Shown here in pieces: positions 14,497-17,821 of a DNA stretch of 22,792 nt; the first letter of the stretch is position 1; each line of letters starts with the position of its first letter. A program made the position numbers and the translations under genes. The DNA lies in the IMG/VR virus record IMGVR_UViG_3300033143_004906. The stretch is one strand, 5' to 3'. A model generated the notes under the pieces. That model worked only from the letters and a program-made list of their open reading frames with translations, made no database searches and was not told the DNA's origin. This DNA comes from a virus.

Positions 14497-15252
14497 ATGC
14501 CATTATTAAATACGTCTGATGCGGATATGGAAACCATCAAGATTCCCGGTGGTGGGAATTTTCAATTTTCAGCCATACGGCCCGAAATGTTAGGGGCAAC
14601 CGAGTATACGTTGGCAACCATTGTTATTGATGTAACCGGAAGTGTTCAGTCTTTTGCCGCCGCGCTGTTAGACTGCCTCAAAACTGTGGTGGAATCTTTA
14701 CAGAAAAGTCCAAGGGCTGAAAACCTCATGCTGAGGATCATCGTGTTTAACAATGAAGTTATCGAACTTCACGGGTTCGTTCCGCTAAAGGATATAGACT
14801 TGAACAGCTATTCCCCGTTCAATCCTTTCGGAATGACTGCTTTATTTGATGCGACCTATTCTGCAATCGGAGCTGCCAACAAATATGGCAAAACCCTTGT
14901 TGACCAGGATTTTGACGTCAATGCATGTAGCTATATCATTACCGATGGTGATGATAATGCAAGCACCGTAACTCCATCCGCAATCAGTAAAAAGATCAAC
15001 GAAGGAGTTCAAGGCGAAATTCTTGAATCAAACCAGACCATATTGATCGGACTCATTGAGAAAAATGACCCGAGTAATGTAAAACCGAAACTGGAAAAAT
15101 TCAAAAAAGATGCCAATCTCGATGCTTTCATTGATGCCGGTGAAGCAACCCCACAGAAACTTGCGAAATTAGCAGGTTTTGTTTCCCAAAGCATCAGCAG
15201 TCAAAGTCAGGCTCTCGGTACCGGTTCCGCAAGTGTTCCGCTTGTCTTCTAA
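14497..15252 (+). CDS. vWA-domain protein, TerY-like (first gene of a TerY-P-type triad)
   Basis: MIDAS motifs: IVIDVTGSV (DxSxS), GMTALFDA (T) and IITDGDDN (DG). AAGGAG SD. Confidence 0.8.
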   Translation: MPLLNTSDADMETIKIPGGGNFQFSAIRPEMLGATEYTLATIVIDVTGSVQSFAAALLDCLKTVVESLQKSPRAENLMLRIIVFNNEVIELHGFVPLKDIDLNSYSPFNPFGMTALFDATYSAIGAANKYGKTLVDQDFDVNACSYIITDGDDNASTVTPSAISKKINEGVQGEILESNQTILIGLIEKNDPSNVKPKLEKFKKDANLDAFIDAGEATPQKLAKLAGFVSQSISSQSQALGTGSASVPLVF

Positions 15253-15257
15253 TTAAA

Positions 15258-15285
15258 TGCTCCCCTATCTTCGGGTGGGGGAGCA
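15258..15285 (+). other. GC-rich hairpin (TGCTCCCC...GGGGAGCA) between the vWA and PP2C genes, with no U-tract
   Basis: 8-bp perfect stem with an 11-nt loop. Confidence 0.4.
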
Positions 15286-15302
15286 CAACCAAGGATATGA
15301 TT

Positions 15303-16145
15303 ATGTTAAAAGCCATAGATCATTTTTTTAAAATCGGATCTACTCATAAGGTATGTGAAGATTATATAATATCAGGAGGAATAGGAACTGTATATCCTGG
15401 TCCTTATGTAATTATAGCGGATGGTTGTTCATCTTCTGATAATACTGATATGGGAGCTAGAATTTTGGCACATTCAGCTCTAAAGTATCTAACACAATTA
15501 CCTTTTAATGATAATAAAGATCAAGTTAACCGATTCGGACATACTGTTATACAAAATGCTGATTCAGTTGCCCACAAACTAAATATTGATAGGTCATGTT
15601 TAGATGCTACATTAATAGTATTAACTGTGTTCAAAAATGTAGCTCATGTTTTTATGTTTGGTGACGGAGCCGTTATAGAGATTACGGACGATGATGTATC
15701 AGTTTTACATGAAGTTACTTTCAATAGAAATGCCCCGTATTACTTAAGTTATAAAATTAACCATCATCATTGGGAGTATATACAAACTGTTGAACATATG
15801 ACACGCGTTCGAACCGGATATTCAAAATTTCTAGGACAACAACTTGATTATGAAGTATCATGTCAATTAGAAATTGCTGATTTTGAATTTTCTTACTGGC
15901 GTTTTAATTTAGACAATTCAAAAGGTATTCTTATATGCTCTGATGGTATCAGTTCTTTCATACATCCTAATGGAACTCCTGTCGCAAATGTAGATATTAT
16001 AAATGAAATTACCAACTTCAAAAACATCAATGGTGAATTCATCAAAAGGAGAATGGGTAGTAAAAAAGGAGCACTAAATACATTAGCTGTACAAGGAATA
16101 ACCCATTATGATGATCTATCAATAGGAGGAATTATAAAGCAATGA
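15303..16145 (+). CDS. PP2C-family Ser/Thr protein phosphatase
   Basis: PP2C motifs: KVCEDY (R..ED), IIADGCSS (xDGHGG-like), LIVLTVF...FMFGDGAVIE (GDSR-like), LICSDGISSF, HYDDLSIGGI. An ATG at 15297 is also possible, but AAGGA sits 7 nt before the 15303 ATG. Confidence 0.8.
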   Translation: MLKAIDHFFKIGSTHKVCEDYIISGGIGTVYPGPYVIIADGCSSSDNTDMGARILAHSALKYLTQLPFNDNKDQVNRFGHTVIQNADSVAHKLNIDRSCLDATLIVLTVFKNVAHVFMFGDGAVIEITDDDVSVLHEVTFNRNAPYYLSYKINHHHWEYIQTVEHMTRVRTGYSKFLGQQLDYEVSCQLEIADFEFSYWRFNLDNSKGILICSDGISSFIHPNGTPVANVDIINEITNFKNINGEFIKRRMGSKKGALNTLAVQGITHYDDLSIGGIIKQ

Positions 16146-17821
16146 AATATTTAGTTAAAGGTCGAAAAGTTGACCTAAAGCAAAATGACTTTGTTGCTAA
16201 AGGAGGCGAAGGAAGTGTTTTTCGGCAAGGGGAAAAAACATTTAAAATTTATACCGAACCGAAGAAAATGATCCCTGTTGGAAAAATACAAGAACTGTCT
16301 AAATTAAAAAAAGGTAACATCATAAGACCTCAGGAAATTATCTTTTCTACTAAAAAGAAACCTGTAGGATTTACAATGAAATGGGTTAATGGAATTCCTA
16401 TATGTAAAATGTTCACAAATGATTTCAGAAATCGGCAAGGAATAACCGAAGATATGGTAATTGCCTTAGTCGAAGAAATGAAATTAACTATTGATTTTAT
16501 TCATAAACAGAAATGTTTAGTAGTAGATGGTAATGAATTGAATTATATGGTGAACCAGAAATTCACAATTCCATATTTCATTGATGTTGACAGTTACCAA
16601 ACTCCGTCTTTTAAGGCAACAGCAATAATGCCATCAATTCGAGATTATCAAGCGAAGATACTATCTCCTATCACTGATTGGTTTTCATTTGCAATCATAG
16701 CATGTCAACTTTTTATCGGAATTCATCCATTCAAAGGAAAACATCCAGATTATAAAAAGAAAGACATGACAAAAAGAATGATTGAAAATGTATCAATCTT
16801 CAATTCAAAGGTTCGAGTTCCTCCACCAACCAGAGATTTCAACTTAATTCCTATCCATTACAAAGAATGGTTCTATTCATTATTTGAAAAAGGAATAAGG
16901 ATGTTACCCCCTGATATGCCTGGTGATGTAATTTTCTCTCAAATTCAAACTATCATTATAAAAAGTACTGATAACTTTGAAATAAAAGAGTTAAGATCAT
17001 TCATTGGAGATATTTTATATTATTCAGTTAGATATGGAGTTCATATTACCAAAACAAAAGGGACTCTATATATCAATCATTTACAATATAAAATAAGTCC
17101 TGATGTTGAGGTTCTCTTAACAGAGTCGGAACATGTTTTAATCAAAATCGAAAATGAAAGACTTCAGGTTAAAAGTTATGCTAATAAAGATCTAGTGGTT
17201 CCTGATCTAGCATGTCAAGAATTTATGATTGTTGATAACTGTTTATATCTCAGAAATAAAGGTAGTTTCACTGAAATAAATGTACTTGAATTAAAAAATA
17301 AAATTATATTTAATACCAAAGAAACATGGAGTATAATGCCGAATTCAAGTCATATGTTTAGTGGAGTTATATATCAAGATGTTCTTGGTATACCCTTTAT
17401 ATGTATCCCTATTCCTGATCCTTCTGGAATGGGCTCATTTCATATATATAAGGTTCCCGAGATAGAAGGATATAAGGTTATTGATGGAAAATATAAATCC
17501 GGTATTTGCGTTCTGATTGGTTATAAGAAAGGTGAATACCATATGTTTATATTGAAATTCGGAACTAAAATGGGGTCCTATTCATGTAGAATAATAAATG
17601 ATATAAACAACCCTGTTATAAATTTTACGGTTCTTGATAATGGTCTCGTTGTTTTAATGAACGATGATACGCTTGAAATATTCTCATATGATCCTTCTAA
17701 AGGAGATGTTAAAACATTCAATGATCCAGATGTTAATTCAACAAACAAATTATTTAGTGAGGGAATGAGAGTGCTGTTTGCAAAGGGCGACAAACTCTGT
17801 TCTCTAAAAGTCAAAAAATAA
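16142..17821 (+). CDS. Eukaryotic-like Ser/Thr protein kinase with an unknown ~280-aa C-terminal domain
   Basis: Gly loop AKGGEGSVF, Lys in FKIY, catalytic loop LVVDGNELN (D-x4-N), DFG-like IDVDS and subdomain IX-like WFSFAIIACQLFIGIHPFKG. The start ATGA overlaps the PP2C stop. Confidence 0.8.
   Translation: MKYLVKGRKVDLKQNDFVAKGGEGSVFRQGEKTFKIYTEPKKMIPVGKIQELSKLKKGNIIRPQEIIFSTKKKPVGFTMKWVNGIPICKMFTNDFRNRQGITEDMVIALVEEMKLTIDFIHKQKCLVVDGNELNYMVNQKFTIPYFIDVDSYQTPSFKATAIMPSIRDYQAKILSPITDWFSFAIIACQLFIGIHPFKGKHPDYKKKDMTKRMIENVSIFNSKVRVPPPTRDFNLIPIHYKEWFYSLFEKGIRMLPPDMPGDVIFSQIQTIIIKSTDNFEIKELRSFIGDILYYSVRYGVHITKTKGTLYINHLQYKISPDVEVLLTESEHVLIKIENERLQVKSYANKDLVVPDLACQEFMIVDNCLYLRNKGSFTEINVLELKNKIIFNTKETWSIMPNSSHMFSGVIYQDVLGIPFICIPIPDPSGMGSFHIYKVPEIEGYKVIDGKYKSGICVLIGYKKGEYHMFILKFGTKMGSYSCRIINDINNPVINFTVLDNGLVVLMNDDTLEIFSYDPSKGDVKTFNDPDVNSTNKLFSEGMRVLFAKGDKLCSLKVKK

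Follow-up and report, generated by a model that had tools for sequence, protein, structure and literature searches.

Gene content of the locus

The sequence analysed here is IMG/VR record IMGVR_UViG_3300033143_004906, a viral stretch of 22,792 nt, which we call the window and to whose full length all coordinates refer. A preliminary description of this DNA had placed a TerY-P-type phosphorylation triad at 14497-17821, namely a von Willebrand factor A (vWA) protein, a PP2C phosphatase and a eukaryotic-like Ser/Thr kinase encoded one after the other in an accessory region. The three open reading frames (ORFs) do lie there in TerY-P gene order, and their domain calls are upheld by family-wide conserved residues, by a structural model of the vWA protein and by the Pfam PP2C_2 profile. 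Comparison with related loci indicates, however, that the unit is not a triad but a four-gene cassette of huge phages, which also occurs in a few bacterial chromosomes and megaplasmids. Its first gene, encoding a predicted PncA-type nicotinamidase, lies outside 14497-17821 and ends 25 nt before the vWA gene. The features of the cassette are as follows.

13689-14471, plus strand: PncA-type nicotinamidase (predicted; cysteine hydrolase/isochorismatase fold), first gene of the cassette
14497-15252, plus strand: standalone vWA protein of 251 aa with a complete metal ion-dependent adhesion site (MIDAS), assigned from invariant residues and AlphaFold/Foldseek
15258-15285, plus strand: intergenic stem-loop between the vWA and PP2C genes, assigned from folding energy, shuffles and positional conservation
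15297-16145, plus strand: PP2C-family Ser/Thr phosphatase of 282 aa, assigned from Pfam PP2C_2 and invariant acidic motifs
16142-16912, plus strand: eukaryotic-like Ser/Thr kinase domain, residues 1 to ~257 of a protein of 559 aa (whole protein 16142-17821)
16913-17821, plus strand: seven-bladed beta-propeller at the kinase C terminus, residues 258-559 plus the stop codon
17833-18951, plus strand: orf17833, 372 aa, candidate fifth and subclade-specific cassette gene

Conservation and distribution of the cassette

A profile scan of IMG/VR with the vWA alignment returned 163 viral stretches, 80 of which, on contigs of up to 618 kb, were taken for comparison; nearly all of these 80 carry all four genes. 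On the cellular side, a profile scan of 185,579 species genomes gave only 19 loci, mostly on short contigs of metagenome-assembled genomes (MAGs; Desulfonema, Beggiatoa, Thiomargarita and related bins), and 72,556 plasmids were searched by tblastn at E<=1. The full cassette is present in the chromosome of Desulfonema ishimotonii and in Variovorax replicons of ~800 kb, and Beggiatoa alba has the nicotinamidase-vWA pair alone, adjoining a TerB gene. In GenBank, the kinase, the vWA protein and the nicotinamidase each match the same three uncultured huge phages of 462-595 kb; near-identical DNA to the window was not found among GenBank phages.

Counted over 87 related loci, the vWA gene is present in 86, the nicotinamidase in 85, the PP2C in 81 and the kinase in 79, with the gaps mostly at contig ends. 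The order nicotinamidase, vWA, PP2C, kinase is kept in 70 of 75 non-redundant loci, with varying insertions between the genes; nearly all of these loci lie on contigs of large or huge phages. The nicotinamidase gene stands directly upstream of the vWA gene in nearly all related loci, and in some phages several kb part this pair from the PP2C-kinase pair. The four genes of the window have their nearest relatives in the same loci (L094 and L108; related loci are numbered with the prefix L), at 67, 56-57, 42-43 and 54% identity for nicotinamidase, vWA, PP2C and kinase, and the identity profiles of the four genes across loci correlate (Spearman 0.50-0.67). As judged from this relatedness of their sequences, the four cassette genes share one evolutionary history. 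Among the loci listed, identity to the window is 51-67% for the nicotinamidase and 44-59% for the vWA protein, as against 25-50% for the PP2C and 35-54% for the kinase. The nicotinamidase and vWA genes form a tight pair that is better conserved, and also richer in GC at third codon positions (see below), than the PP2C and kinase genes.

Three relatives with the cassette, L093, L094 and L108, come from MAG bins assigned to Thermoplasmatales, Promethearchaeota and Thorarchaeota; they are 48-67% identical to the window in three of the proteins and 38-43% in the PP2C. The neighbours in L108 are phage-like (gyrase/topoisomerase, a methyltransferase and many small ORFs), and all three are probably mis-binned phage contigs.

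The gene that follows the kinase gene in the window, orf17833, found no convincing match in Pfam and PDB searches. Ten related loci have a homolog at 48-56% identity, which lies between the vWA and PP2C genes in nine of them (L009, L010, L013-L015, L093, L094, L109 and L110) and after the kinase gene in L023. It is probably a fifth, subclade-specific member of the cassette. Samples of the same phage differ in this part of the DNA: between the window and L005 there are in-frame indels of 27 nt in the PP2C gene (15375-15401) and of 39 nt in orf17833 (18720-18758).

The four proteins

The product of 13689-14471 is, on its conserved residues, a predicted PncA-type nicotinamidase with an intact catalytic triad and metal site. 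It reaches Pfam Isochorismatase at the gathering score (27.8 bits versus a cut-off of 27) and matches the NCBIfam nicotinamidase/pyrazinamidase model at 1.5e-7. All of its PDB relatives are of PncA type (M. tuberculosis PncA 3pl1, yeast Pnc1 2h0r and Pyrococcus 1ilw), and it aligns with them on IIDPQNDFC and on the WPPHCxxGxPG signature, where WPPHCLIGLPG of the window protein pairs with WPPHCVSGTPG of M. tuberculosis PncA. Among 87 family members there is no variation in the Asp-Lys-Cys triad (D9, K151, C201), in the metal ligands (D52, H54, H118) or in W115. In PncA, the Asp/His/His metal site coordinates the pyridine nitrogen.

The vWA protein of the window has no match of its own among Pfam, NCBIfam or PADLOC models, and Pfam VWA is reached by 5 of 19 members of its family. 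The MIDAS residues (D45-x-S/T-x-S49, T114 and D150) are invariant across the family. The AlphaFold model has a pLDDT of 90.0 and gave 295 matches to the PDB at E<=1e-3 with Foldseek; the 50 best matches listed are essentially all vWA or integrin I domains, including archaeal ArnB (8s05_A). We conclude from the model and the invariant residues that the product of 14497-15252 is a vWA-fold protein with a complete MIDAS. It carries an N-terminal beta-hairpin extension, its Ser-rich C-terminal helix and tail are conserved, and its terminal residue, F251, is invariant. The family comprises 531 cluster representatives (50% identity) at E<=1e-30, a number that by itself makes the cassette an abundant one. 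All 150 of the representatives listed are standalone proteins of about 220-295 aa, and fusions to nicotinamidase or kinase were absent from the best 150 of 3074 representatives and from the best 120 homologs per protein. The closest viral structural match of the model in BFVD is A0A8S5RYW5 (Myoviridae sp. ctNQV2; TM score 0.83, root-mean-square deviation 2.2 Å, 24% identity), which is annotated as 'restriction enzyme' and, at 472 aa, is longer than the window protein; this hints at relatives of the cassette vWA that are fused to another domain.

The PP2C protein matches Pfam PP2C_2 well above the cut-off (E=1.7e-11; 44.5 bits versus 24), and 79 family members share, without exception, its acidic motifs (D22, D42-G43, D123 and D216-G217). 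Its stop codon overlaps the kinase start in an ATGA (caATGAaa, 16142-16145), as the preliminary description had pointed out. The kinase remains under the Pfam Pkinase cut-off (25.3 bits, E 1.2e-5, versus 31.7). An alignment of 17 kinase family members nevertheless shows an invariant G21-G22-E23-G24 loop, K35, H121, D129-x4-N134, D148, D179 and R212 as well as an invariant DWFSF subdomain-IX motif, and the family profile finds the kinase domains of Nek2, RSK and CDK8 in the PDB at 1e-4 to 1e-2. Judged by these invariant residues, the kinase appears to be catalytically competent. The long C-terminal region, previously put at ~280 aa and given no function, is indeed present; it spans ~300 aa, is confidently all-beta and is a seven-bladed beta-propeller.

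Codon usage and the intergenic hairpin

The vWA gene had been described as GC-richer than the PP2C and kinase genes and as separated from them by a GC hairpin, and both observations hold. Computed per gene, GC content at third codon positions (GC3) in the window is 0.43 for the vWA gene and 0.44 for the nicotinamidase gene versus 0.18 for the PP2C and 0.23 for the kinase gene; elsewhere, a gene similar to major vault protein (MVP-like) has 0.42, orf17833 0.38 and the backbone 0.10-0.23. The preliminary description had taken the contrast to mean that sensor and effector halves came from different sources, with the hairpin at the seam. In the related loci, GC3 of the nicotinamidase-vWA pair exceeds that of the PP2C-kinase pair in 72 of 75 cases (Wilcoxon 1e-13), in genomes ranging from 24% to 70% GC: 28/28 of the AT-rich, 19/21 of the intermediate and 25/26 of the GC-rich genomes. 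Drift towards average composition would reverse the sign in GC-rich genomes, where the excess is in fact kept, and the recurrence across lineages shows that the bias belongs to the genes rather than to the history of the window's lineage. The pair lies above the local GC3 background in 70 of the 75 loci, and homologs of orf17833 show the same raised GC3 in 10 of the 10 relatives that have one. A chimeric origin, as proposed from the GC contrast, is contradicted by this recurrent pattern, by the congruent relatedness of the four genes and by the bias of orf17833.

The hairpin at 15258-15285 has a 12-bp stem and a cUUCGg loop, with a centroid energy of -22.3 kcal/mol (z=-4.26; 0 of 200 shuffles as stable). 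Its sequence is identical in three other samples. It has no U-tract, and a simple terminator scan omitted it for want of a T-run; it matches no Rfam family, and the window has no tRNA. We searched for comparable structures in 74 related loci (45-nt window, minimum free energy <= -18, within 90 nt of the stop codon). A strong hairpin follows the vWA gene in 54% of them, as against 5% for the nicotinamidase, 12% for the PP2C and 11% for the kinase gene (Wilcoxon p about 1e-6 for vWA versus the other genes). Such conservation of position is not what an assembly seam predicts. The post-vWA hairpins vary in sequence among loci, and some of those in relatives are canonical terminators with U-tracts. 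The element seems to serve as a conserved punctuation mark that sets off a nicotinamidase-vWA unit from a PP2C-kinase unit, and terminator-like, attenuator-like and mRNA-stabilising functions are candidate roles for the copy in the window. A terminator or attenuator after the vWA gene would give high output of nicotinamidase and vWA protein and low output of PP2C and kinase, a reading that fits the codon-usage contrast between the two gene pairs. Higher expression of the nicotinamidase-vWA pair is our tentative explanation for its raised GC3.

The same codon profile could be read as a mark of late, high expression together with structural genes such as the MVP-like one, with the vWA protein acting as a Mg2+-dependent assembly co-chaperone or as a virion-associated protein. 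The MVP-like gene falls in the same high-GC3 class, and a survey of jumbo phages proposes vWA co-chaperones in phage assembly (PMC7824862). A MoxR-type ATPase partner is, however, absent, the constant partner being the nicotinamidase instead; apart from the window, just one lineage (L018) has an MVP-like gene close to the cassette, and the NAD-linked neighbours described below would have no explanation. We consider an assembly role extremely unlikely.

Neighbours linked to nicotinamide adenine dinucleotide (NAD+)

In Preiss-Handler salvage, the nicotinamidase PncA works with the nicotinate phosphoribosyltransferase PncB, and in many bacteria the pathway is controlled by NrtR. An annotated pncB gene stands directly after the kinase gene in Variovorax sp. 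SRS16, where the nicotinamidase-vWA pair lies among NAD kinase, Nudix, macro-domain and AlkB genes. PncB and the other neighbours were then located by searching the Variovorax proteins against the related loci, and a neighbour was counted when it lay within 8 kb of the vWA gene (107 loci). PncB homologs occur in 20 further loci, about a fifth, and at least 12 of these are non-redundant and full-length. All six PncB neighbours scanned score above the curated NCBIfam NAPRTase cut-off (TIGR01514, 367-454 bits versus 269.55). The position of PncB varies. L053 and L055 have it between vWA and PP2C, and L047 and L083 between PP2C and kinase; in L076 and L084 it sits just upstream of the gene for the nicotinamidase, and in the Variovorax megaplasmid, L063 and L085 just downstream of that for the kinase. 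In two of three complete huge phages bearing the cassette, PncB is encoded elsewhere in the genome. The association with PncB is a specific one, since the product of nicotinamidase, nicotinic acid, is the substrate of PncB.

NrtR-like Nudix regulators flank the cassette in 13 loci and adjoin it directly in L050, L097, L100, L102, L104, L105 and the Desulfonema ishimotonii chromosome. They match the NCBIfam ADP-ribose-responsive repressor model at 1e-20 to 1e-51, below its equivalog cut-off, and also match nicotinamide mononucleotide (NMN) adenylyltransferase/Nudix models. NADAR proteins were found in 13 loci, and Apyc1-like metallo-beta-lactamase (MBL) and macro-domain proteins also occur nearby; NADAR and Apyc1-like MBL genes lie directly upstream of the cassette in several relatives. 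Altogether, 48 of the 107 loci have at least one neighbour linked to NAD or ADP-ribose.

The Variovorax sp. SRS16 locus (L111) lies at 612000-645000 of plasmid 2 (NZ_LR594667.1), a linear record of about 800 kb. Besides the cassette, pncB and NAD kinase it holds two Nudix genes, a macro-domain gene and two AlkB genes, together with a nucleoside deoxyribosyltransferase-domain gene, a peptidyl-tRNA hydrolase gene and a tRNA-ligase-like gene. In gene content it looks like a huge phage.

The positions of PncB also bear on the idea that the kinase serves host takeover by phosphorylating host proteins, in the manner of other kinases encoded by phages, with the PP2C limiting it and the vWA and nicotinamidase genes as functionally unrelated neighbours. 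A seemingly competent kinase with a protein-binding propeller would suit such a role, as would the several kb that part the two gene pairs in some phages. Against this, the four genes keep their order in 70 of the 75 loci and have correlated identity profiles, PncB has been inserted inside the cassette (PP2C-kinase or vWA-PP2C) in several lineages, and bacterial chromosomes also keep the cassette, a setting that offers no host for takeover. This explanation seems very unlikely to us.

Relationship to known systems

TerY-P combines a TerY-like vWA protein and a PP2C with a Ser/Thr kinase that is fused to a zinc ribbon or, in the defence version tested, to an OB fold (PMC11090510). The cassette shares with it a standalone MIDAS-containing vWA protein, a PP2C and a eukaryotic-like Ser/Thr kinase, co-directional and in the same order, and a phosphorylation switch on or through the vWA protein would be expected in both. 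The two differ in that the cassette kinase ends in a seven-bladed beta-propeller, in that the nicotinamidase is added as a constant fourth gene, and in setting: the cassette occurs for the most part in genomes of huge phages and recurs with PncB and NrtR-like genes, whereas TerY-P is found in cellular defence islands with Ter, McrBC and CoCoNuT genes. According to the summaries in PMC11090510 and PMC7699616, the TerY-P triad was described by Anantharaman, Iyer and Aravind in 2012, with the zinc ribbon, and Gao et al. tested its anti-phage activity in 2020, in the version with the OB fold.

Membership of the cassette in TerY-P as catalogued, which the preliminary description had suggested, did not find support. 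None of the three window proteins matches any PADLOC model at E<=0.01, and the PADLOC TerY models are matched by 0 of 46 vWA family members at E<=1. The 17 kinase family members match generic kinase models of PADLOC only (mad6, PD-T4-6 and MkoA) and no TerY-P model, and the plasmid search returned no feature annotated TerY. The cassette resembles TerY-P in architecture and is, by these tests, not a member of it.

The cassette might still act as a phage-carried anti-phage triad of TerY-P type, for instance one excluding competing phages, with halves from different sources. Domain content and gene order do agree with the published description (PMC11090510), the Beggiatoa alba pair lies beside a TerB gene, and the Desulfonema ishimotonii cassette lies beside transposase and AAA_15/SMC_N ATPase genes. 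Related kinases match kinase models of the MADS, PD-T4-6 and Mokosh defence systems, and the closest viral structural match of the vWA protein is the 472-aa protein annotated 'restriction enzyme' mentioned above. The JGI annotation labels several vWA homologs 'YegL', the COG name of TerY-type vWA proteins, and this label is the single point that speaks for TerY as such. This explanation must be set against the PADLOC and plasmid results, the propeller in place of a zinc ribbon or OB fold, and the order conserved in huge phages with the nicotinamidase as a constant member; its chimeric part conflicts with the recurrent GC3 pattern, the congruent relatedness and the conserved hairpin position. 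Overall, we regard it as improbable.

Likeness to the archaeal ArnA/ArnB system is confined to fold and architecture. The structural search with the vWA model returns ArnB among its matches, and the cassette vWA protein likewise has a Ser-rich C-terminal tail; the cassette has no FHA or zinc-ribbon partner and would have another output. The Ser/Thr-rich C-terminal region of ArnB is reportedly phosphorylated by Ser/Thr kinases, whose action phosphatases counter.

The nearest metabolic relative is the Preiss-Handler pathway. The cassette nicotinamidase retains the PncA triad and metal site, and PncB and NrtR-like genes lie in or beside the cassette in many lineages. Unlike the classical enzymes, it is about 75 residues longer than PncA proteins in the PDB and is always paired with a vWA protein, nearly always along with a PP2C and a kinase. 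No account of PncA or PncB being controlled by Ser/Thr phosphorylation came up in the part of the literature covered.

Three routes by which phages rebuild NAD+ are described in the literature covered. NARP1 consists of Adps and Namat, NARP2 of Nampt and Nmnat, and NARP3, going by its abstract, of a PnuC-like transporter and a NadR-like enzyme; PncA and PncB are absent from the text of the NARP1/2 preprint. The purpose we propose for the cassette would be analogous, with phage enzymes making NAD+ anew out of breakdown products or precursors to overcome NAD+-depleting immunity. Its chemistry would differ, running from nicotinamide through nicotinic acid to nicotinic acid mononucleotide (NaMN), and a signalling triad is attached to it. 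None of the NARP1-3 enzyme pairs was detected among the window ORFs in Pfam, NCBIfam and PHROG scans. A survey of jumbo phages (PMC7824862) and one of viral NAD+ and ADP-ribose genes (PMC9503650) mention neither a nicotinamidase nor the cassette, and in our partial coverage of the literature no paper was found that joins nicotinamidase, von Willebrand, phage and kinase. What appears to be new here is a TerY-P-like triad with a propeller kinase that is operonically joined to nicotinamidase and Preiss-Handler salvage and is native to huge phages.

A proposed role in NAD+ recycling

We propose, with moderate confidence, that the cassette is a phosphorylation-controlled nicotinamide-recycling module of huge phages, possibly one that counters NAD+-depleting immunity. 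The nicotinamidase would convert the nicotinamide released by NAD+ cleavage into nicotinic acid, which would enter the Preiss-Handler route to NAD+ through PncB of the phage or the host. The vWA protein would be produced in excess along with the nicotinamidase and may be a MIDAS-dependent partner or scaffold, and its Ser-rich C-terminal helix and tail, ending in the invariant Phe, would be the likeliest substrate of the kinase and the PP2C. The beta-propeller could provide signal input or a docking site, and phosphorylation would switch NAD+ salvage during infection. The likeliest gain would be that NAD+ is kept up in the face of NAD+-depleting host immunity or of heavy NAD+ use by the phage. 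The role against immunity is suggested by neighbouring repair genes and counter-defence-like genes (RNase H, RtcB, ligases, NADAR and Apyc1-like genes). A stronger version, which is possible but to our mind rather doubtful, holds that the cassette is a fourth phage route of NAD+ reconstitution, of Preiss-Handler type, gated by a vWA/PP2C/kinase-propeller switch that responds to the breakdown of NAD+ or to the infection state, and that it allows the phage to outlast NAD+-depleting immunity. In that version, Ser/Thr phospho-signalling would for the first time be seen to act on a metabolic pathway of viral counter-defence.

Several observations weigh against NAD+ recycling as the role of the cassette. 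The window itself contains no PncB, NrtR-like or NADAR gene, so that salvage here would have to draw on the host or on genes in other parts of the genome; nicotinamidase by itself does not rebuild NAD+. About half of the related loci have no NAD-linked neighbour within 8 kb, and the kinase, the PP2C and the vWA protein are tied to the nicotinamidase by synteny only. Both G and C are raised at third positions of the high-GC3 genes, a pattern that departs from the classic mark of translational selection. Finally, the bacterial chromosomal cassette beside transposase and AAA_15/SMC-like ATPase genes would fit a defence function equally well.

A close rival differs from nicotinamide recycling against immunity in its purpose and not in its chemistry. 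In that explanation, the cassette regulates NAD+ homeostasis so that the phage can run NAD+-consuming reactions of its own throughout a long infection cycle, or serves as a stress response in cells, and has no part in counter-defence. Candidate uses of NAD+ are ADP-ribosylation, NAD+-dependent RNA repair and NADAR/macro-domain chemistry, and the repair and nucleotide enzymes nearby include RNase H, RtcB, RNA and DNA ligases, a CCA-adding enzyme, AlkB and NAD kinase. The occurrence of the cassette in bacterial chromosomes and in Variovorax replicons of about 800 kb points the same way, as do the matches of the NrtR-like proteins to models for an ADP-ribose-responsive repressor and for NMN adenylyltransferase/Nudix proteins; regulating NAD metabolism is what NrtR proteins ordinarily do. 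Simple homeostasis leaves unexplained, however, why nearly every lineage retains a kinase/PP2C/vWA switch alongside the enzyme, and why counter-defence-like genes (NADAR and Apyc1-like MBL) lie directly upstream in several relatives. We judge it unlikely, while taking it as a serious contender.

NAD+ depletion is a widespread anti-phage strategy of bacteria, and none of the three described rebuilding routes includes a nicotinamidase. If phosphorylation-controlled nicotinamide recycling is the function of the cassette, it would add a new pathway to the NAD+ arms race, give the TerY-P-like vWA-phosphatase-kinase architecture a testable metabolic output and show that a defence-like signalling triad can be core equipment of phages. 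The presence of the cassette in cultured Variovorax strains and in Desulfonema ishimotonii makes experiments feasible.

Other features of the window

The viral context given in the preliminary description, with RtcB and a ligase nearby, is borne out by the remaining genes of the window.

1-3234, minus strand: collagen-like fibre ORF, 1078 aa within the window, running off the window start; Pfam Collagen 2.4e-104 in 10 stretches
3941-6430, minus strand: ORF of 829 aa with no family match in profile scans
6719-7369, minus strand: Ros/MucR-type zinc-finger protein
8368-10683, plus strand: MVP-like gene with major-vault-protein shoulder and vault-repeat domains (MVP_shoulder 3.4e-22), unusual in a phage
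11079-11687, plus strand: RNase H
11666-12898: RtcB, by profile match
19486-19884, plus strand: Phage_ABA_S domain protein
20252-21382: ATP-dependent ligase, by profile match

The 'tail fibres' of the earlier account correspond to a fibre-like gene that is indeed present, in the form of the single minus-strand ORF at 1-3234. It consists of (G-S/T-S)n collagen triple-helix repeats broken by three CBM_5_12 carbohydrate-binding modules, and was left out of the ORF list since it is open at the window start. This ORF also causes the GC skew of -0.3 to -0.4 over 1-3000.

Samples differ in the region of the MVP-like gene: L005 has 161 nt (3599-3759 of that locus), including the start codon, that are missing from the window at 8255/8256, and L006 has other deletions. 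The RNase H and RtcB ORFs overlap by about 20 nt as listed, and the gene caller used for L005 starts RtcB 3 nt after RNase H. Downstream of orf17833, at 19126-19152, there is another strong hairpin, whose stem of 12 bp is perfect (GGGAGGGTATAT/ATATACCCTCCC); it overlaps a near-consensus sigma70-like promoter at 19113-19142 (11/12 matches).

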